DNA of 63,980 bases, counting the filler, from Diploschistes diacapsis (lineage: Eukaryota), in assembly GCA_023645945.1 (NCBI GenBank). It is 8 parts of 8 records of this genome, joined end to end, with 100 filler letters (N's around TTAATTAATTAA, not from the genome) between each part and the next. Parts side by side here need not be neighbours in the genome. Positions count along the whole stretch, not along the records: positions 43,656 to 48,819 come from JALAIB010001593.1; 7 more parts are not named here. The stretch is one strand, 5' to 3'. The translations under genes were made by a program, and so were the position numbers. This document shows positions 27,732 through 59,425 of this stretch, one piece after another. The notes below the pieces were generated by a model, which saw nothing but the letters and a program-made list of their open reading frames with translations, ran no database searches and had not been told where the DNA came from. Position 1 is the stretch's first letter; every line of letters begins with the position of its first letter.

Positions 27732-27831
27732 NNNNNNNNNNNNNNNNNNNNNNNNNNNNNNNNNNNNNNNNNNNNTTAATTAATTAANNNNNNNNNNNNN
27801 NNNNNNNNNNNNNNNNNNNNNNNNNNNNNNN
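27732..27831. other. Artificial contig linker (44 N + TTAATTAATTAA + 44 N)
   Basis: Six-frame stop linker. Identical copies at 33009-33108, 38284-38383, 43556-43655, 48820-48919, 54074-54173 and 59326-59425. Confidence 0.97.
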
Positions 27832-32898: not shown

Positions 32899-33108
32899 CT
32901 ACATGCACCCCGATCCGTCAGCACAATGATCTCTGCAGGAGCCTAGAGCCTGAATCTCAATCCGCTCATCTTTCCACACCCTCCTCCCCTCGCACACACT
33001 CCCCCGATNNNNNNNNNNNNNNNNNNNNNNNNNNNNNNNNNNNNNNNNNNNNTTAATTAATTAANNNNNNNNNNNNNNNNNNNNNNNNNNNNNNNNNNNN
33101 NNNNNNNN

Positions 33109-33568
33109 ATATATTATAAACGCTACTAAAACGTTTTTAAAAAGTTTTGGCGTTTAGGTTCTCGATTATCCATTATATAATCTAGATTTGAACGTTATAG
33201 AGCATCTTTGGCTTAAATTAAAAGAGAAGGTATTTCGGTTTTATTTAAAGTTTAAAATAATACGTGGGAGTAAGGATAATAAGAAACAGGTTTTAAAAGC
33301 TGTTATTATCGAGGCATTTGGTCAAATTACGGTAGATAGGGAGTGGGATTTGCCTGCTCGATTAATCTACTCGATGCCTACGCGAATTCAGGCTGTATAC
33401 GACGCGTAGGGGTGGCAAACAAAGTATTAATAGATACTACGAATAAAGGGCATCAAAATCATCTAAAAAGCGCATTTGTAGGACATTATTTGGGTGCGCA
33501 TCGCATCTCCAAAGTTGGTGATGTCTACTATAATTTAGGTAGGGACCATTACTTTTGGCACGTGACTG
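33109..33568 (+). mobile_element. RIP-mutated 3' end of a Tc1/mariner (impala-like) transposon, copy 1
   Basis: YPLYNLDLNVIEHLW...SMPTRIQAVYDA*GWQTKY* is a degraded SPDLNPIEHLW...SMP.R..AV..A.G..TKY transposase C-terminus. It ends ...TTTTGGCACGTGACTG + TA (TIR begins CAGT). Confidence 0.88.
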
Positions 33569-37632: not shown

Positions 37633-38040
37633 ATGCCACTTCATGATTGTTCGTCTCCACAGGAGGTCATAAATTTCATTGCAAAAGCTGTACAACTTGA
37701 AGACCAAACTTACCGCTTTGGATATCTTTCTCCCTCTATATACGACGTGGCATGGGTTTCTATGATCCGGAAAGAGGTTAACAATCATCACGTTTGGCTT
37801 TTTCCAGAATGCTTTGACTACATACTTCGATCTCAACTTGAAGATGGGACCTGGGAATGCTATGCTTCCCCTGATGATGGAATACTGAATACTCTCGTCT
37901 CTCTTCTTACACTCCTGGTTCATGAGAGCGCGGACAAAGTGTGAGAAGGAGCAGGGGGACATGATTAGTCATACAGAATGTATATAATCCGCTTACAGAC
38001 ATCTCTTGTAAAGAATAATACAATCCTTTTTCTCTACTAA
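37633..38040 (+). pseudogene. N-terminal fragment of a fungal bifunctional diterpene cyclase (CPS/KS type)
   Basis: FGYLSPSIYDVAWVSMIRK..WLFPECFDYILRSQLEDGTW...DGILNTLVSLLTL matches the S.YDTAW / Q..DGSW / DGILNT motifs. Stop at 37942-37944, then AT-rich repeat DNA. Confidence 0.85.
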
Positions 38041-38046
38041 TATAAC

Positions 38047-38283
38047 TGACAGGTTATGAGCCCGGCGCTCTAGCCGTACTTTGCTTTTACTTTTGCTTTT
38101 TTATTAACATACTTTTGGGTACTAGATTTCCTTTTTAAAATAATTCTCTAAAATTATTAAATATCTTCTTCTCTATACCAGCATTCTAGTTCTTTTAAAA
38201 TTAACTTTTTGTCAGTCTTCTTTAAGAATTTAAAGATAATTTATAGTTACTTTTAATAAGCCTATCGAGGACAGGATATCTGT
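38047..38283. mobile_element. AT-rich RIP-like repeat truncating the cyclase, possibly an LTR start (TGACAGG...)
   Basis: Abrupt switch to TpA-rich sequence running to the contig end. The family cannot be determined. Confidence 0.35.
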
Positions 38284-38383
38284 NNNNNNNNNNNNNNNNN
38301 NNNNNNNNNNNNNNNNNNNNNNNNNNNTTAATTAATTAANNNNNNNNNNNNNNNNNNNNNNNNNNNNNNNNNNNNNNNNNNNN

Positions 38384-38623
38384 AATATAGATTGATCCCG
38401 AATAATAACTTAAGATATTTATAAAAATAAATACGCCTTTTTTCACGAAAATAAAGTCGTGTTTATATATAATTAACTCGCTCGCCGTTTATTATAAATT
38501 TAATAAACGGTATTTTCGAAGCTCGCCGTTTACGAAAATAAACGCGATTATCGAGCGATAACGAAAACTTACTCGCCGTTTATAAGAATAAACGCGAGTA
38601 ATGAGCGCATTACGTAACCCCTG
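38384..38623. mobile_element. Terminus of a RIP-mutated hAT-like element
   Basis: Three CTCGCCGTTTA subterminal repeats (AAACGGCGAG on the other strand) and a ...TACGTAACCCCTG end (CAGGGG terminus). Confidence 0.5.
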
Positions 38624-39558
38624 GTCCCGTGACTGATTTATATATAAAGCTGGGACGTGCCAAGTCTAGTACTTGGATCGTAACATAAACGAGACCAAAC
38701 CCACCTTGATCTATACCTTGTATCTACCTTATAGAGATAGAGATCATAACAATGATAGCATTATTGTAGAAATAATAGTAGGCATTTATTGTTTATTTAC
38801 ACCGAGTTAACCGAGGGACCATTATTTTTGGACTAGTACTGTAGCTTTGTATAATAATTGGCGACTTGCTCTCAAAATGACCTGATTTGTCTATTTCCCT
38901 CGACTTGAAGAGTGATTTAGAATAGCCATTCACCTGTGCACTTGCATTCAAGTACGCAATCCTCGCACGCTGCCACTGTTGTGGGAGATGGGAAATGATC
39001 ATTACAACTATCGTATTTGAAGTTCCAGACTAAGTAGTGGCCAGTCCAACATGATAGCTGGATAGGGATGAACAGGACGCTGTCAAGCATCTCATGTGGG
39101 AGAGGAGGGGGTTATTGGAAATTTGATTGGCTCGAAGTACACCTATCCTCACCCTAACCGACAAGTGCTCAGCACTTTTGCAACTAAATCTCATGTCCCT
39201 GGAGATATCTCCAAAAACCAGCCACTCCAAAATTGAGAAAACAGAAAGAAATGATGACTGTGGGAGGTGGTCGGCCTGCATCTTCCCCGCCAGCGATTAC
39301 AAGGTAAAATACACCGGTGATAATATTGTTCCAACTTCAAGTCCTCGGTCGTCTCGGCTGGATCGAATGCGTAGAATTTCGTCAAGCTCACACTTTGAAA
39401 GGCTGCGGGCCAGGAATATGTGCAAGAAAGTCCGCGGTTGACAAAGCGTTTCATCCAACTAATCCCAAATCTAAAGGCTCGTTGCATTCGTTCGATCTCG
39501 TTGATGATGGTACAAAGAAGAAGGTCGTGATCGGAAAATGCAAAAACACACCAAGTAC

Positions 39559-41582: not shown

Positions 41583-44449
41583 TGTGTATTGCGGAATATA
41601 AAGTCTGTCGATTGGAATGTCAGAGAATGCTCCCACAACACAGATTGCAGAGGTATTCCAAACAAACCCTTTTGGTCTTCAAGGACTTGTCGGTTTGTAA
41701 ATTTTCAAGATTATTAGGTTGATATAGTTGTTACACCCCAGGCATTCGCTCGAGGGAAAGACAAGAGAGATGTCGAAGGAGTGGCAGGCGATAGATGACA
41801 GGTTCTATGCACCAACGGTATGATACAGGATACTATGCTTGTTCGTCTGATGACGGCAAGGCCTCCAGTTATGGATCGATCAAAAGCCGAGGAATTAGTC
41901 GTTTGGTAAGTGAGACGATAGGAGAGTAGAAAAGGAATGGCTGGAAGTAATCCGATGGGGTATTCTGTTAAGAACACAACACGATCAAATAAACATCCCA
42001 AGAAGAGGGCAAAAAGAAAAGAGATTAAAAAAAGTGACTACTACAACGGACAACGACGACAACAACAACGTCGACGAGGTCACGATAAGTCGATAAGGAA
42101 ATTCAAGAGAACGGGACGAGACGGATTCTGTCTACTGATATAATACGGCAAGGCATGCGCTGGAGAGGCAAGTAAGTAAGTAAGTAAGCAAGCAAGCCTT
42201 TCCAAAAGTAGGAAGGACAGTGCCACCAAAGATTTGGCACACACACCAAGAAAAAGCGAGGACCAGAGGAAATTGAGCATTTAGTAGGTATTAGTAGGTA
42301 TTACTAGGTATCGAATATCTATCGATTTGCATTATTGCATTAATTCTTGGTCCAGTCCGAGTTCTGCTATGAAATTTGTGAGCTAAAAGTTAGCCAAGGG
42401 CCTGTCTCTCTTTCAAACTTTTGTTTCCGCTTTGCTTTGATTTGCTTTGCTTTGATCAGTCTCACCCCAAATTACTCTCACTAATAATAACCTCATCGGT
42501 TACCACACCTTGTGCGAGGTGGTAGTGTTGGGTGGACGAGACATCTTTGGTGGGTGGGTGTAGAAGAGCAAAGCGATGCCAGTCAGTGCCCAGTCAGTGC
42601 CAGTGCCAGTGCCAGTGCCAAGTGCCCAACTACTAGTAACTAGTAAATTACTAGGTACAAGTGAGGGTGCAGCGGTGCCGCTAACAGTCACCGGGACTAG
42701 CATCCATCGTTCCAGCGAGTTGTATCATCACGCCCCAGCCGGGCTTCCCTAAATAAAGTGCACTGATTGAACGCTCGCACGGCACTCACTCGAGCCACAC
42801 TAAAACAGGCCACTAGTCCACTAGTCTACTAGTCCACTAGTCCAACTAATCCGACTAAGCCCCACATACACATACTCATTCCAACAGCCACCGTGACCCT
42901 TCAAAGAATCAACCCAACGGTCCCAATAATCAAGCATGAATCCTCGTCACTTCTCTACCTAGCCTAAAGGAAGTTGCCGATGGAACTGCTATCCACGAAA
43001 ACCCACCGGGTCCCCCCCCCCAGAAGGAATTGCCTCAAACGTATCCAAGATACACACCAAATTGTCAACTCTGGAGAAAACATCCCCGGTTGCAACACAA
43101 TAGTAAGTTGTAGTAGTTGTCTGATTATTGATCGCCATCACTAGAGTTCTTGTCTAGCAAAGGGCCCCCCCATCTCCGCCCTAACGGCGTCTCGTGTCTC
43201 GAATCCTTACCTGGGTGGGTGCTGCTGCACTGCTGCTTAATCGTAGATTCGTAACAAACCTTGATGGAGCCAGCATGCATCCAGGGTCGACACGACGCAG
43301 GCTAGAGCCGCTCTAGTTCCAGTTGCACGGGAAAAGGGCTGGCGAGTACGGGAGTCAGTGTGCAAAAGCAGCAAGGCTCTGCATTAAATTGCACAAATCA
43401 TCGCGGTGCACAAAAGTGAAAACAAAAGAGCATGGTCAAAGCAACCAGTAAAAGAGAAATGGGCCGAGGCCGGGAAATTGTGACCAGCGTTATCATCCCC
43501 ACCCTTCGTCACTCGCATTATTACTACTACTACTACTACTGCTACTACTACTACTNNNNNNNNNNNNNNNNNNNNNNNNNNNNNNNNNNNNNNNNNNNNT
43601 TAATTAATTAANNNNNNNNNNNNNNNNNNNNNNNNNNNNNNNNNNNNNNNNNNNNAATGAATACTCAATATATATTGAACGGTTATTAAATTTTAGAACA
43701 AGAATAATATTATAATAATAATCGCCTTTATAATAATAAATAAACGCGTCATATGGCGGTTTAAAGCTTTTTCCTTTCATATATTAGGTTATAAAATAAG
43801 AAATATTAAGTTTTTAGACAATATTCTTGAAAATATTGTCGTTGTAATGAGCGCCGAGAAGTTTAAAACGCTCGAACGGCTTTAAACAGCGTTGGAGAAA
43901 TATAATTATAACAAGAATTAATTATTTATTTATTACCGCTTATGGTAGATTTAATTATTTTTAATTTAATTAATTGATTAATTCCGACGTAACGTCGAAC
44001 CTTACATTTCAGAATAAATGAAACCGGACGCAAGATTACGTCGGAAAAGATAAAAAAAAAAAAAGAACGCGATAATAACGGCGTTAAAAAGATAAAACGA
44101 GATATTAACGTTAGAAGGAAGGAAGTATAAGTAGAAGAAACGGCGTAGAACGACGTGGTCTATAAATTATTAATCTGGTTCAGCAGAATAGCCTAAGAAC
44201 GGTAGAATTTGTCCGTATAGATAGAATGCGTTTTATGGATCTTTTAACTATTTATTCTATATTAATAATCATGAATATTATTAAGTTTATTAAAGGGTTA
44301 AATGGGTTAACGATATCTATCAAAATCTTTAAACTCATTTTTAATAGACACCCCCGCTAATCCAAAAAAGGCTAGGCTTGCCTAATAATATAAATACGAC
44401 AGCTTTTAATTTTTTATTTATATTTATTATTATTTTAAACAATCTAAGA

Positions 44450-47400
44450 TCTCTATCGTATTTTAAATCTTAAGCTCTTAAACAGCCATAAAAGAACAAA
44501 TAAACTCTATATAAAATACCGAAACGAGTAACTGACGTAAAAACAGCGCGTACTTATTTTTTATACTCTCGAAAAGGTCCTTTAGGAGGAGCGAACCGTT
44601 CTTTACGAATAGATCTCAAACTGGTTCAACCTTCATTTATAAACAACAGATATAAAAGCTTTAAACATTCCAAAATAGAAGGATATTACGTAAAACATCA
44701 CTCCTCCTTAAACCCTAACTGGCCCTATACGATACTTTATAGAAATATTAGAACCCAACGTTAGTTTATTATTGATATTAATAAACGGCGTTTATAAAAA
44801 TCTGTAAAGCCTTATAGATTGTAATATTACGTTTATTGAAAGCGGTATTAATTGTTTTATAATCGATTTACATCTTTAATATACTCCGCGCACGCCGCTA
44901 TATAAAGGGATATTATAGATCTAACAGTTTTTCATGCTATTTAGAGGCATTTTGAAGTTTAATTATCTTTAGGGCTCGCTAGCAAACCTCGCGGAAGTTA
45001 AACGTAGCTTCAATATATCTAATATGAAATCGCGGTTATTTTACGGTCTATACGAGGACTTAGAATAAGAATTCGAGGCGTTCCTAATAACGCTCGGAAA
45101 TAGCGAAATCAGCTAAAAATATCTTATTATAATAAGTTATTACGAGAAGATTCGATTAAATTTTAGGTTATCGTATCTCGATCTATCTCTTAAGAACCGT
45201 CTTTTAAAGGTAAGAAATCATATTTTTAGAATTATTTCGGGGTATTTTTATATAGCGACCGGTTCGATAGTGATAAAGATATATAAAAAGGATCACGAAT
45301 TGGATTCTAGAAACGTGAACCTAAAAGGTTGCGATAAGTTTTGGTTAATTATTAGTCCGTATTCTTTTATATCGTTTAAAGGATTTCTTATTTAGTATTT
45401 CTATTTTAAACCGCATTATTCTTAATTCGTACGTTATTTAAAAATTATTTGTTTTTCGTTTTTATTGCGACGATATAGTATAATCTTTAGAATTATTCGT
45501 TAACGGTCCGGTAAAGTCGTGAAGATATTATCGAAAGTATACTATGTCGTAATTAATATAAGAATATGTTTTATTAAAGTAAGCAATTATATTTCCGATG
45601 AATAAAATTTTTCGTCCTTTTACCGATTTTGCGATCGAAGATGTTCTAGTTTAACTTCGATTAAAGTTTACGACTTTAAATTAATCGGCGAATCAAGGAA
45701 TCTTGAAATTAACGACGGATAAAAATTAGATATTATGCCGTCAAGTTTAAGAAGCCGTATTTACGGGAACGAAAGTAAGAACGATTTTATTCGATAGTTT
45801 AAACGAAAACGTAAATTAAATTCTGAAATAAAGGAATCTAGAAATAAGAAAAACGCCCTTCGTCCTCGCAGAAATAAAGTATCGGTATTTAAGGTTCGAA
45901 CGAAAAGAGTTTCGCCCATCTTAACTGAACTCGATATTCAAACTGCAGGAAAGGAGATTGAAAATATATCTAAAAATAGCGAAGCTCGAGTTATCGGATT
46001 TGAAAAGGAAGATATAAACGAAATAGGAAACGGCTAACTTAAGAAAAAAGGTAAAAAACTTCGGTTCTAAGACGAAGTTAAGAAAGCCGGGTTCTAAATC
46101 GAAAGCGATAAAGATAAGACGGAAAACGAGTCGAAAGAAAACGGAATTAAAAAGAAAGTCGAGAAGATTGAATCTAGAATTGAAGTTAAGGACGAATTAA
46201 AAAATAATATTAAAAAATTTAGCATTAAATAAGATTAAATTGATAGAAATAGAACCGAAAGATTTAAAATTAAATAAATTAAACATAAAGATAACGTAAT
46301 TAAAAAAGATGATTCTATCAGCGAAATTAATAAAAAAAAAAATAAAATGTTTAAATATAATATCGTTTCTTTTTCGTCTGGCTCGGAATTACAAGATAAT
46401 ATTATCGGCTCGTCGACGCCGGAACAATTCGGTTATTCTTAACGCAATAGAAAATTCCCGTTGTTAACGATAACGAAACTGCCACCACCCGTTATTATTA
46501 AAAATGAAGCAGCTAGCAATTCAGACAGCGAAAAGAAAAAAGATCTAAAGATAGGCTATTTTTCATCAAAATTTAGTTAAAAGGACATTAAGGGCAACAC
46601 GTATCAACCAAAGTTATTAGATTGTTTTCAGCCTGAACATGATGTTCGAGACGATCTCATGCTTTATATTCAATAATACTTAATTAATGAAAATTAAAAA
46701 TTTAATATCTTTATATAGATCTCGAGTCGGGTAAAGATCTGTAAGATTCTTAATCGTTTTTTATCCTAATATCCGATTAAGAAATCCTGGCTCGATGATT
46801 ATATTATATTTATAATCTTGAATCGTATCTTCGGCGATTATACCGATATTTACGTTATTGATCCGATCCGAGTTTTAAAGGTTTACGAATATAAGGATTT
46901 TAAATCCTTAATCTGCGATCTGGGCGCTCGTCTTATTATTATTCCTTGTTGCGTTTTTTATTATTGGTTTCTTCTCGTTTCGGTTAAGGAAACTAAAATA
47001 TTGTTTATCTTCGATAACGAATTTACGAAAAGATCGTAAAAGGATTCGGTATAATAATTTCTAATAAAAGGTCTAAACGAGCGCGTTCGGAAAACAATAT
47101 ATTAAAAGGTTTATTATTAGGTTACTTTAACTAAATCCGGGTTAACTAAGATAGGTTCCCGAAATGGGCGATGGCTGGAATTACGGAATGTTTGTTTTAG
47201 CTTATGTAGAAACGTATCTACGTATCGCGTCTGTTTCCACGTCGTTCGATTTATTATAATTCCGTTTACGCTATTTTAGGCTTCTTACAGATCCTATAAT
47301 CTTATTTAAAAATGATTCGTTTAATAATTAGCGACGTAGCGACAAACGGCAACGTACGGAGCAGGGGTTATTTTTTAAACGCCTGCGAATTTCTGTCTAG

Positions 47401-47890
47401 ATTCTTAATGGCCACGGAAGGAAAGAAAGGATCGAAATCGACGAGGGAAAATTAAGCGCATTCGGTGAAGCCTGGGAGAAATTTTATTAAGATCGATTTA
47501 AATAGTATAAACCAGAAGACGTTTATCGGGGCCTTGTTATAGCTTCGATACCTGCTTGCGGCCTTATAATGGCTCAACTTGTAAAGCTTTTAAACGGTTA
47601 TTTTGTCGATTAAATATTTTCGGAATGTTTAATATCAATTTAGTTCTTTATAAAAGGAGCTACGTCTTCGGCATACGGAAAATTCCTATAAAGAATATTT
47701 GATATCGAAATATATAGGGACTTCCGCCGATTAAAATAAATAAAAAATGAAGAACTGAAAATGGCCTATCGCGCACGTAAAGTAAAGAGGAAATCGTGGA
47801 AAAGTATTAAAATTAAATCGCACCGGACGGCAACCGTATATATTATTAATAAATTTTTCCGTAAATACATGCAAGTGAACCCGAGGTAAG
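44450..47890 (+). pseudogene. RIP-inactivated gene encoding a KDM4-like JmjC domain (~45190-45645) fused to a Ulp1/C48 peptidase domain (~46785-47280)
   Basis: One frame from ~44520 to 47108 with only TAA/TAG stops. JmjC relic: IYKKDHELDSRNVNLKGCDKFWLIISP...YS*FVRYL...R*RSGKVVKILSKVYYVVINIRICFIKVSNY. Ulp1 relic: WLDDYII...IIIPCCVFYYWFLLV...FIFD, then after a probable intron (47109-47154) DGWNYGMFVLAYVE. Both gene ends are approximate. Confidence 0.8.
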
Positions 47891-47999
47891 AAGGCGTTGA
47901 ATAAGAAAGAACATCTGAAGGTAATAAAACTATTATTTAAAACGTTAAAAAAAAAGGCGAAGCGATATACCGGGTTAATAATTTACTACGGTTAAAACC

Positions 48000-48700
48000 T
48001 ACCCAAGGATTAGATTGCGTATGCTTATAATATCTTTTATTTTTATAAAAGATGCAATTTTTTTTAAACGAAAAGATTTATATCGGATGCGATAAGTATG
48101 TTTTTTTATCTTATATCAATTGATTTATCTGATGGTTCGATAGTTTTCTGAATTTTAAACCGCCGTTAAAAGATATCGTGAAACTTGTATTATACGAACT
48201 ACGGCCTCGGTTAAAATATTTGTCTTCTTCGGTTTCGATAATCAGCTAAATCCTTTATCAAAACAATAAGAACAGCAAAATTAATAATACGAATATTTAA
48301 TTGTAGTAGAAATTTCCGATAGAATTCATTAAAGAACTTTTAGATTTTTTTATATTTCTATCTTCTTTTGATATTAACACGAGTATTTGTCTTAAATGAT
48401 AGAAATGTTCGGCCGATTGTTATAAGATACGTAATTATTGAATCATCTATATCTCGAGCATTTCGTTTATCGTTCGATTTAGCAACGACCGTTATCTCTA
48501 TTGGTTCGGCTTGGCGTCAAGCTTTTGTCCGGTTAAATAACGGCGAAGGATTTGGCGAACTGCGTAAAGCAGCTTCGGGTTCGATCGAGATACTATTTTA
48601 TCTAATCGTAGGCCAATATTGAAAAGATTCTGGATTGTATCTAGGCACATCTTCTCGCTTCTTAAGGCCAGACTACAATAATTTAGAAAATTATTTGTAA
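48000..48700 (-). pseudogene. Second RIP-inactivated ORF relic, convergent with the JmjC-Ulp1 gene, family unknown
   Basis: The minus frame reads NLFNIGLRLDKIVSRSNPKLLYAVRQILRRYLTGQKLDAKPNQ*R*RSLLNRTINEMLEI*MIQ*LRIL, with TAA/TAG at plausible Gln positions. Confidence 0.45.
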
Positions 48701-49489
48701 GATGTGTTTCAGGTTTATTTTTAGTAATTTATATCTTTTATAACGATTCTTATTCAATCAATTAAATGCCTATATTTAATATATATAATAATATAAAAAA
48801 GACGTTATACTCGAATAATNNNNNNNNNNNNNNNNNNNNNNNNNNNNNNNNNNNNNNNNNNNNTTAATTAATTAANNNNNNNNNNNNNNNNNNNNNNNNN
48901 NNNNNNNNNNNNNNNNNNNGGGGAGATGAGGATGGAGGGGGTGGGCGATGGGAGAGACGAGAAACGGCAAGGAAAAAGAATAGAAATTGGACAAAATCAA
49001 AAAGGAGATGCGAATAGAGCTCTGAGGCAAGCTCGACTATTGTGATGCAATAGGGGACAGCGAGCAAAAATCTGTCTAGTTGGCCGGGCCAAGGTCACGT
49101 TAAACGAGCAGTATTGGGTTGCAACGTGCACATCAACTTTGAAAATCACCAGCATCGCAAACCGCTTCAGGTATCTCAAAACCGACAACCGATTATTCCG
49201 ATGCTAGAAAAGTGCAACCCGGATAGTATGCCTCCTAAATACAAGACTACGCCGCAGAGCAACCGCCACCGCATCGAGTGGAGCGCAGCATCTCGCCAGT
49301 TTCATAAAGGAACAATATCCAGACGGCTAACCAGATAATCCCACAAACGAAGTTATGCTGATCAAGAATCCATACCCCTTAAATCCCCCGTCAGCCCCCA
49401 AAGTAAAGACCGGTGCTCAAGAGTCAGATGCTGCTCCTTTGTACGCCATGCAAAGTCGTGAAGCCATACAAAAGCAATCGTTCAGAGTT

Positions 49490-54073: not shown

Positions 54074-54173
54074 NNNNNNNNNNNNNNNNNNNNNNNNNNN
54101 NNNNNNNNNNNNNNNNNTTAATTAATTAANNNNNNNNNNNNNNNNNNNNNNNNNNNNNNNNNNNNNNNNNNNN

Positions 54174-54817
54174 TTATTACGGTATCCGTGTTCGTATATT
54201 TATCGAAACATTTTAAATTATTTTTTTAATTTTAATAATTCTAGAATTATCACGCCTATTTCTTACGCTTTTATTTATATAAAAAAATTTCATTATAATA
54301 TTTCGATAGATTCACTGCAATATTTCGATAGATTTACGGAAATGCAGTATTCGTGTCAATATTAATATTTTAAAATTTTTAATTACAGTGTCCGTGTCCG
54401 TGCTTTTATTATAATATAGTGTCCGTGTCAGTATCCGTATCGAAAAAATTTTTATTGCGATGTCCGTGTCCGTGCATTCACCGAAACACTTTAAATTATT
54501 TTTTTAATTTTAATAATTCTGGAATTATCACGCCTATTCCTCACGCTTTTCTTTTTTTTAAAAAATTTCACCGTAGTGTTTCGGTGGATTCACCGTAATA
54601 TTTCGGTAGATTTACGGAAATATAATATCCGTATTAATATTAATGTTTTAAAATTTTTAATTGCAGTATCCGTGTTCGTGTTTTTATTATAATGTAGTAT
54701 CCGTGTCAGTATCCGTGTTTTAAATTTTTAGCTGTCGTGTCCGTGTTAGTGTCCGTGTTTTAAAAATTTTTGTTATAATGTCCGTGTTAGTGACCGTGGC
54801 ACGAAACGGCCAGCCTA
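54174..54817. mobile_element. Terminus of a hAT-like element with a ~277-bp internal tandem duplication, nested in a Tc1 copy
   Basis: Units start at 54174 and 54451 and differ almost only by C/T and G/A. There are many TCCGTG subterminal repeats. It ends ...GAAACGGCCAGCCTA, directly abutting Tc1 coding sequence. Confidence 0.55.
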
Positions 54818-55199
54818 ATTTGAACATTATAAAGCATCTTTGGCCTAAATTAAAAGAAAAGATATTTCGGTTTTATTTGGAGCTTAAAACAATGCGTGGA
54901 AATAAGGATAATAAGAAACAGATTTTAAAAACTGTTATTATCGAGGTATTCGCTTAAATTATAATAAATAGGGAATGGGATTTACCTGCTCGATTAATCT
55001 ATTTAATGTTTACGCGAATTTAAGCTGTATACGACGCGTAAGGGTGGCAAATAAAGTATTAATAGATATTACGAATAAAGAGCTTCAAAATAATCTAAAA
55101 AGCGCATTTATAGGACATTATTTGGGTGCGTATCGCATCTCTAAAGTTGGTGATGTCTACTGCAGTTTAGGTAGGACCATTACTTTTGGCACGTGACTG
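54818..55199 (+). mobile_element. RIP-mutated 3' end of the same Tc1/mariner transposon, copy 2
   Basis: Colinear with 33186-33568, same ...TTTTGGCACGTGACTG+TA end. Differences are nearly all transitions. Confidence 0.9.
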
Positions 55200-58006: not shown

Positions 58007-59425
58007 GGCCTCGAATGTTGTCAGACAAATCGACACAGCAGTAGAACGACTGGATGGCATCTTCAGGACGCGATCGTCTTATTCCTCTCCGCTAATTCAC
58101 TGCTGCCTATTTCTTCGGCAAGGATGCTTCCAGGCGCCTGTCTACCATAATGCTGGGCACTATACTCCTTTCAGACATCACCGTCACGAGGAACTCCGAG
58201 GGTTGAAGATCTTTAAGATAATTATCTATACCCCCGAAACACAGGCACAATGGCAGTTTTCTCCTTCCAGTACTTCAAGCCACCGTCCGCGCAGTCTGCA
58301 TCGGCCTTCTTTGAAAAGCAAGATGACCTCTATGGTCTTCGTTGCAGCTCATTTCAAAATATATGCTGCGAAGAAGCAAGCATCTACCAAGCTGTGACTA
58401 ACGACCCACTCAAGGGGATGATTTGTTATCAAGTTTATGCCCCTCTACCGAACGTATGTTACTGTACTTGGATCTTGGGGCAGACAAGAGCCGCACAAGT
58501 ACGCGATCGGAGATCGATCTTTCTTCCCTATGAAGCGTCGAAAAAAGACCACCTTCTAAGTACTCCCTGCTGGATATCGGGCTCTTAATATCGGGCTAGG
58601 TATTGTGAAGCACCTAGATCTAGAAAACTATACGAAGTCGGGCGCAATGATAGCACTCGCTTGCCACCAATAACCGTAAATAGGCTGTAAGGAAAAATTC
58701 CTTTCACTTTGGGCGGCGATGGCATGTCCTTCGCGCTTTTTACCATAGCACCGGCATTGAAGCTTTGCGATGTGGTACGAGCAGGTCTGAGAGGACTGTA
58801 CATATGACTTGATCTGGGTGAGTTCTCCAGCACATGAAGAAGGACCTAAAAACCGAGACTCCCGAGTTTATATAAAACCGCACATGCACAGCATATTCAC
58901 AACGTTAGGATTTCTCTCAAGTTTGCGAGATAACCTCAGCACGATGCAACTTTGACTTGTGTACTATGCTCTTGAAGTCATGCTTTCAGGCTTTCTTGCT
59001 TTCTATATATTCCACCTATACATACCCTAGTGCCGTAAATACAAGTATACTGCTTATCAGCCCCTTAAAGGCAAAAAGGTCCAACTCTGTTCCCCATCTC
59101 CCTCTTCCACTTTCTGCTTCCACGCCTAAGACCTGCTGGCACAAGCTCCTCTTTTACGCTTCTCAAAAAACAAAGGAACCATCGCACGCTCACCTTCCTT
59201 ATCCTCCACACAGCCGGCAAAATACATACATGCCTGCTGCACACTTCCCCCTGTCCAAAACAATCCACATAACCATTCACAACCGCCCACCCAACCCCCC
59301 ATTAGCATCCCGTGCTCTACTTTCGNNNNNNNNNNNNNNNNNNNNNNNNNNNNNNNNNNNNNNNNNNNNTTAATTAATTAANNNNNNNNNNNNNNNNNNN
59401 NNNNNNNNNNNNNNNNNNNNNNNNN

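Follow-up and report, generated by a model that had tools for sequence, protein, structure and literature searches.

The window analysed here is a stretch of 63,980 nucleotides from Diploschistes diacapsis (GenBank assembly GCA_023645945.1). One of its contigs, JALAIB010001593.1 at positions 43656-48819, carries a gene in which a JmjC histone demethylase domain of the KDM4 type is joined to an Ulp1/SENP-type protease domain (Peptidase_C48) and to a third, conserved C-terminal domain. The gene is a copy inactivated by repeat-induced point mutation (RIP) of the classic kind, and we conclude with high confidence that the contig holds a RIP-killed member of a JmjC-C48-C-terminal-domain family. The whole explanation that we favour combines this dead copy with a heterochromatin-eraser function and a link to mobile DNA; because the function and the mobile-DNA link are predictions, the combination is held less firmly than the first conclusion and is rated as moderately probable.

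The fusion gene consists of three exons, starts at 44511 or 44538 and ends at 48399, so that about 1256 codons are read without frameshift or indel. The start is uncertain, being either an ATA at 44511 or a position near 44538, where the closest relative (P0002) starts. The features of the contig are the following.

43656-48819, no strand: stand-alone 5164-bp contig with the fusion gene, delimited by the linkers at 43556-43655 and 48820-48919 and AT-rich from end to end

44511-47108, + strand: exon 1, with the N-terminal region, the JmjC core, a charged linker and the His/Asp half of the C48 domain (36 premature stops in 857 codons counted from 44538)

44880-45720, + strand: KDM4-like catalytic core, JmjC with conserved flanking parts, from the homologue alignment

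45801-45815, + strand: KRKRK basic patch, first part of a K/R/E/S-rich linker that runs to about 46730

46429-46704, + strand: patch with a weak RIP signal, from the density of CpA plus TpG

46725-47108, + strand: N-terminal half of the C48 (Ulp1/SENP-like) domain with the WLDD motif, from the homologue alignment

47109-47154, + strand: intron 1, 46 nt, GT..AG, frame shift of +1, with an intron at the same place in intact loci

47155-48095, + strand: exon 2, with the Cys half of C48 (VPEMGDGWNYG) followed by the conserved helical C-terminal domain, from the homologue profile

48096-48143, + strand: intron 2, 48 nt, GTATGT..ATAG, predicted from splice motifs and the alignment of P0009 and L002

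48144-48399, + strand: exon 3, end of the C-terminal domain with the ELRPRL motif (4 premature stops, 2 TAA and 2 TAG)

Across the gene there are 54 premature in-frame stops, every one of them TAA or TAG. The preliminary description of this DNA had reported a frame of about 860 codons without frameshift in which all stops were TAA or TAG, and frame 0 is indeed unbroken over 857 codons (44538-47108) with 36 stops (28 TAA, 8 TAG and 0 TGA), while each of the other five frames contains 6-17 TGA. Exon 2 adds 313 codons with 14 premature stops (10 TAA and 4 TAG), again without a frameshift, and a profile of exon 2 from nine natural homologues matches 47158-48129 of the window, all in one frame (E 3e-21). 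There is just one in-frame TGA, at 48397; it falls at the end of the homologues and probably represents the native stop. The shift of frame beyond 47108, previously read as a frameshift, is not a lesion but the 46-nt intron: in the intact loci L001-L003 the frame changes at the equivalent position, where L002 carries a 51-nt GTATGT...AG intron. Two introns and a conserved C-terminal domain of about 330 residues had been overlooked, and the gene reaches 48399. The KRKRK patch may act as a nuclear localization signal.

Because Pfam recognized no family in the raw three-frame translations, the window copy can be placed among JmjC/KDM4 proteins only through its homologues. A phmmer search of 1.84e9 representative proteins, using the window translation with stops read as X, returned 78 relatives at E<=1e-3, the best at 7e-47. 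Pfam scanning covered 40 of these 78, and JmjC was found in 31 of the 40. When the relatives were searched back, their JmjC parts fell at 44541-45932 and their C48 parts at 46725-47099, colinear and in one frame, with no match elsewhere in the window; at least nine proteins matched both parts. A family profile built from 11 intact homologues was then compared with the sequences in the PDB, where it matched KDM4D (1e-33), KDM4C, KDM4A and KDM4B (1e-29 to 1e-31), yeast Rph1 (2.8e-24) and KDM5 (about 1e-15). In agreement with these matches, the AlphaFold (AF2) model of P0001, which of all relatives best matches the JmjC region of the window (33% identity; mean pLDDT 80.5), had as its top Foldseek matches the cores of KDM4D/A/E over 270-312 columns (E 1e-15). 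Among 30 homologues the Fe ligands His/Glu/His are invariant, as are an Asn, a Cys, a His and a second Cys, and a Lys is nearly so; we take these residues to correspond to the zinc site and the 2-oxoglutarate-contacting Asn/Lys of KDM4 numbering. The KDM4/JMJD2-like core proposed at the outset is thus supported by domain, profile and fold matches alike. A point against the assignment is that Pfam JmjN gave no match in the family even at E 5; the N-terminal region is nevertheless conserved, and P0001 aligns in fold with 270-312 columns of KDM4 cores of about 330 residues.

The protease domain behind the JmjC core, likewise anticipated, was recovered in the same frame. Peptidase_C48 (PF02902) was found at E<=1e-3 in 7 of the 40 scanned relatives, five of which (P0009, P0018, P0020, P0040 and P0050) exceed the gathering score of 20.7 bits and two of which (P0011 and P0016) lie slightly under it; the match spans only part of the model. 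The C-terminal part of the family profile matched SENP1 in the PDB (E 8e-8), and the homologues show the motif order WLND, HW, D, NCG. Within the catalytic triad the His is nearly invariant, most members have the Asp, which is replaced by Glu or Asn in 3, and the Cys is found in 7 of 7 sequences spanning that part. The oxyanion Gln speaks against a fully canonical enzyme. It had not been evident in the window, and it is absent there as well as in L001 and P0009; in the family it is not conserved, its distance to the Cys varying where it is not missing. This lowers our confidence in canonical catalysis, not in the fold.

Downstream of C48, the family shares the conserved, all-helical C-terminal domain. 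It has no Pfam match, and word-index searches returned only P0009 itself. An AF2 model reached a pLDDT of 54.5, and the best hit of a VIA fold search over 48,161 chains, at Z 4.3, was uninformative. The C-terminal domain of P0009 is labelled PF28402 in one database, a model missing from the Pfam version used. Two relatives, P0006 and P0013, combine the JmjC core with the helical C-terminal domain and have no alignable C48, which reflects either domain loss or gene-model error. Another, P0021 (1604 aa), shows 15 tandem JmjC matches (Pfam E 1.5e-256), either a read-through tandem array or an assembly or gene-model artefact.

Composition and direction of change both bear the mark of RIP. The contig has a GC content of about 0.30 along its whole length, a TpA/ApT index of 1.0-1.3, a (CpA+TpG)/(ApC+GpT) index of 0.33-0.62, and observed/expected ratios of 0.44 for CpA, 0.48 for TpG and 2.4 for CpG. 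Direction was determined at 88 alignment columns with at least 80% agreement among at least 15 homologues. At 53 columns the conserved residue still stands in the window; at the 35 differing columns, undoing C>T or G>A changes alone restores the residue in 25 cases and reverse transitions restore it in none, while the transversion controls gave 2/35 and 2/35. These values, together with the depletion of CpA and TpG, bear out the earlier view that the lesions are RIP transitions. The Fe ligand codons now read TAT (45282), AAG (45288) and TAT (45543), that is Tyr/Lys/Tyr for His/Glu/His, and the window copy is therefore dead. At the zinc site, the Cys and His codons have become TAT (45417) and TAT (45435). 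In the protease, the catalytic His is Tyr (TAT at 46962) and the Cys is Tyr (TAC at 47182), while the Asp codon GAT at 47013 is intact. Each of the mutated Fe-ligand, C48 His and C48 Cys codons is one C>T or G>A step from the conserved residue, as had been pointed out for the two protease codons.

The restriction of stops to TAA and TAG and the lack of any indel in about 1256 codons argue for RIP and not for slow decay. Two other readings, slow decay of an ancient pseudogene within an AT-rich isochore and accidental likeness to both domains, would agree with the raw translation lacking a Pfam match and with the low GC over the whole contig. Both versions are contradicted by the E-value of 7e-47 against natural proteins, the intact frames, the one-directional changes (25 vs 0) and a depletion that affects CpA specifically, CpG standing at 2.4 times the expected value, so that we regard an origin other than RIP as extremely improbable. 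RIP also fits the patch at 46429-46704, where CpA plus TpG reach about 9.7 per 100 nt vs 2.6-4.3 in the flanks: a diverged sister contig has 184 unrelated letters at 46533-46704, and the overlap of the low-RIP patch with this unshared segment fits RIP sparing unduplicated sequence.

Sister copies of the gene were looked for by aligning the Logan contigs of a lichen metagenome run (X1) to contig 43656-48819. Eighteen pieces aligned, 7 of them at least 99% alike and 11 less than 95% alike, with depths of 11.6-23 for the identical pieces and 28-33.5 for pieces below 90% identity that overlap the gene; Logan contig depth is no copy number. The sister copies differ by 301 transitions vs 40 transversions, in both directions, as expected of sister copies struck by RIP independently of each other, and we consider this good but not conclusive evidence. 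Runs X2 and X3 contained next to nothing of the contig, and no RNA run is listed as containing it; the sole public run that does carries the label lichen metagenome. The view that the gene was multicopy holds to the extent that diverged sister copies are present in the source sample; as to their belonging to one genome, a metagenome may hold more than one fungus.

Intact JmjC-C48 fusion genes with catalytic residues were found in normal-GC DNA of lichen-fungal contigs. A related-locus search based on 11 intact sequences yielded loci L001-L016; the intact natural genes are L001-L003, P0009 and P0016, and the intact protein measures about 1150-1300 aa. The members with a species name belong to Candelina submexicana (Candelariomycetes) and Endocarpon pusillum (Eurotiomycetes). 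In keeping with the fusion proposed from the dead copy, these homologues have JmjC and C48 in one gene. L001, L002 and L004 are deeply diverged paralogues within one assembly, and L004-L016 are short or distant JmjC genes.

The pair L002 and L003, from two assemblies, is informative about relocation. The two are 89.8% identical over 4110 bp, which correspond to the gene, and share in addition a patch of about 100 bp upstream; no further alignment was obtained in the 10-kb flanks although dS is 0.20, and the shared unit stops within a few codons of the gene stop. Their differences comprise 245 transitions vs 106 transversions and are unbiased, coding indels are multiples of three, and dN/dS has a value of 0.37 over the whole gene and 0.24 within JmjC, so that both genes seem to be functional. 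In its source sample the gene occurs in more than one copy, as the preliminary description had supposed, and this closest intact pair lacks synteny. The continuous L002/L003 block opens with a near-palindromic 38-nt stretch, TGACCCGGTTTACG...CGAAACGGGTCA, at 9899-9936 of L002 and 9900-9937 of L003, about 70-100 nt upstream of the ATG, which might serve as a regulatory hairpin or in recombination.

The limits of this shared unit bear on the possibility of a new type of autonomous mobile element, whose helical C-terminal domain would serve as a recombinase or transposase of novel type and move a unit of about 4.4 kb. The unit would then be the gene with about 0.4-0.65 kb upstream, ending within a few codons of the stop, and the C-terminal domain is without Pfam or fold match; against this stand the lack of terminal repeats and of a target-site duplication (TSD), an all-helical domain known from a low-confidence model (pLDDT 54.5) in which no catalytic motif was recognized, and borders that are defined by two copies only. 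We consider such an element very unlikely.

The link to mobile DNA that we favour is a different one, namely that the gene family relocates as cargo of, or beside, mobile DNA. In one locus the following gene lies downstream of the fusion gene.

L002 16777-19484, - strand: DUF3435 gene of the tyrosine-recombinase, Starship-captain type (E 4e-54)

It is separated from the fusion gene by 2.8 kb and stands on the opposite strand, convergent with it, an orientation that would place the fusion gene inside the element if the DUF3435 gene is a Starship captain; the sequence of L002 covered here is 20.9 kb long. According to PMC13486527, Starships with DUF3435/tyrR captains, and RIP on repeats, are documented in lichen-forming fungi; in the main text of that paper JmjC, demethylase, Ulp1 and SUMO are not mentioned. 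The remaining neighbourhoods are mixed: L001 has a reverse-transcriptase fragment upstream, an EF-hand gene and a DUF3716 gene, L003 has a DUF7924 gene, and no mobile-element domains were found at L004-L016.

Several observations weigh against a mobile origin. In the 5164-bp contig, which assembly may have shortened, no transposase, reverse transcriptase, terminal inverted repeat (TIR), long terminal repeat (LTR) or TSD was found, which extends to LTR and TSD the earlier remark that the contig shows neither transposase nor termini. Inspection by eye of the borders of the L002/L003 homology revealed neither TIR nor TSD. DUF3435 adjoins one of the three full-length loci, and tblastn located no such gene in the window or in the covered parts of the 15 remaining loci. 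L001 adjoins an ordinary EF-hand gene, and the sister copies in the metagenome could be those of another fungus. The earlier suggestion that the gene was mobile is therefore taken as a hypothesis.

A competing explanation is an ordinary family of host genes that encodes a chromatin regulator specific to the lineage; one recent segmental duplicate would have been RIPed, and the family would have neither a link to mobile DNA nor a role in counter-defence. Its intact members lie in normal-GC, non-RIP DNA and are under purifying selection (dN/dS 0.37), transposon hallmarks were not found, and the neighbours of L001 and L007 are host-like (EF-hand, BCS1-type AAA and kinase genes). Such a family would have to account for a pair about 90% identical that has nothing in common outside the gene at a dS of only 0.20, for the DUF3435 gene 2.8 kb off in L002 and the reverse-transcriptase fragment upstream in L001, for at least two diverged RIPed copies in one sample, and for deeply diverged paralogues (L001, L002 and L004) in one assembly. 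We rate it as a serious possibility of clearly lesser probability. As an alternative to an ordinary host family, a family that relocates and is tied to mobile DNA is plausible.

The family occurs in lichen-associated Pezizomycotina, and its intact protein has a KDM4-type Fe(II)/2-oxoglutarate core first, then a linker of charged residues that includes basic patches and is probably disordered, then an Ulp1/SENP-type His-Asp-Cys protease and finally the helical domain of about 330 aa. In the mechanism that we propose, the gene would have been duplicated in the mycobiont genome, and by reason of that duplication RIP would have mutated it in the sexual cycle. The intact protein is predicted to be nuclear, to remove H3K9 (possibly K36) methylation and to cleave SUMO or a related modifier off chromatin proteins; by removing both marks it may act as a heterochromatin eraser. 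The gene would relocate as cargo of, or beside, mobile DNA without being a transposon itself. Enzymes of the KDM4 type demethylate H3K9/K36, and those of the SENP/Ulp1 type detach SUMO; RIPed DNA of Neurospora carries H3K9me3, and in several eukaryotes SUMO contributes to heterochromatin. The anti-silencing idea is drawn by analogy from these activities in other proteins and from these properties of silenced DNA, and we put forward mobility and an anti-silencing role as hypotheses.

In the strongest form of this idea the gene would be selfish, a relocating cargo gene of Starship-like or other mobile DNA that erases H3K9 methylation and SUMO to escape or delay silencing, with RIP as the answer of the host. 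We think this rather improbable; if true, neither a transposon-associated histone demethylase nor a counter-silencing factor would have been described in fungi before this protein. Independently of that outcome, both enzymatic domains belong to textbook families, and the literature that could be searched yielded no description of the two fused together with a third conserved domain, nor a paper on a JmjC-Ulp1 fusion or on a fungal transposon-borne histone demethylase; an architecture without earlier description had been suspected from the start. The family is unlike a housekeeping gene in its many deeply diverged members, its near-identical pair in unrelated contexts, its copy beside a Starship-type recombinase gene and its copies destroyed by RIP. 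It is a candidate heterochromatin eraser, working for the host or for mobile DNA against the host. The window copy is only a pseudogene, and its value is that of a pointer to a three-domain family with intact genes open to bench test.

The setting of the contig within the window deserves a separate account, since the window is a chain of concatenated contigs, which had been overlooked, with seven identical linkers, N44-TTAATTAATTAA-N44, between the pieces.

27732-27831, 33009-33108, 38284-38383, 43556-43655, 48820-48919, 54074-54173 and 59326-59425: artificial linkers

The first piece measures 27.7 kb and the pieces between linkers that follow measure 5177, 5175, 5172, 5164, 5154 and 5152 bp. 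From 27.8 kb on, the window thus consists of contigs of about 5.15-5.18 kb sorted by falling length, and any 'synteny' across linkers is spurious. Because the gene lies on a contig of its own, the C2H2 and RING genes that flank it in the window are no physical neighbours. The remaining pieces code for usual ascomycete genes, e.g. RhoGEF, Tudor-SN and diphthamide synthase. AT-rich contig ends passing RIP-type index thresholds occur at 33109-33500, 38001-38283, 38384-39000 and 54174-55000 of the window; they fit short-read assembly breaking at RIPed repeats, and none of them resembles contig 43656-48819. That contig is not similar to anything else in the window, and its internal repeats are low-complexity chance pairs only.

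Compared with known systems, the family is closest in its first domain to KDM4/JMJD2 (KDM4D/A/B/C and Rph1), which provide its top sequence and fold matches and share the HxE...H iron triad, the Asn/Lys contacts to 2-oxoglutarate and the Cys/His zinc-site positions. The profile alignment also places in the family the AEAIN stretch of KDM4D, a stretch that may tune methyl-state preference. The family differs in being only about 20-23% identical to these enzymes, in having no Pfam JmjN match, and in carrying the C48 protease and the helical domain instead of a PHD, Tudor or zinc-finger reader tail. With Ulp1/SENP (Peptidase_C48, SENP1) it shares the profile match, PF02902 in five homologues and the motif order; unlike those proteases, it does not conserve the oxyanion Gln, and its C48 domain is fused C-terminal to a demethylase domain.

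Among mobile elements, PMC2836005 describes the Ulp1 domain as a recurrent passenger of transposons, namely Ginger1 and Mutator-like elements. Ginger1 and Mutator-like/KAONASHI elements resemble the present case in a C48 domain carried on multicopy, relocating DNA; their Ulp1 is fused to or stands beside a DDE transposase between TIRs, whereas the fusion gene has neither transposase nor TIRs and its partner is a JmjC enzyme. As a separate observation, PMC6237848 lists a lineage-specific Aspergillus oryzae gene annotated as protein kinase plus Ulp1 protease, together with DUF3435 and DUF3723 genes in the same gene list; fusions of Ulp1 with further enzymes may recur more widely in the accessory DNA of fungi. 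The L002 fusion gene, 2.8 kb from a DUF3435 gene, resembles the Starship cargo known from lichen fungi (Tangerine) and differs from it in that no element borders were seen for the fusion gene.

Two further likenesses are functional analogies only. Epe1 of S. pombe is, like the predicted product, a JmjC protein opposing H3K9me heterochromatin, but it is not of the KDM4 type and has no protease. VANC of the Arabidopsis VANDAL transposons is transposon-encoded and undoes silencing, as the fusion protein might, but it has no homology to the fusion family.

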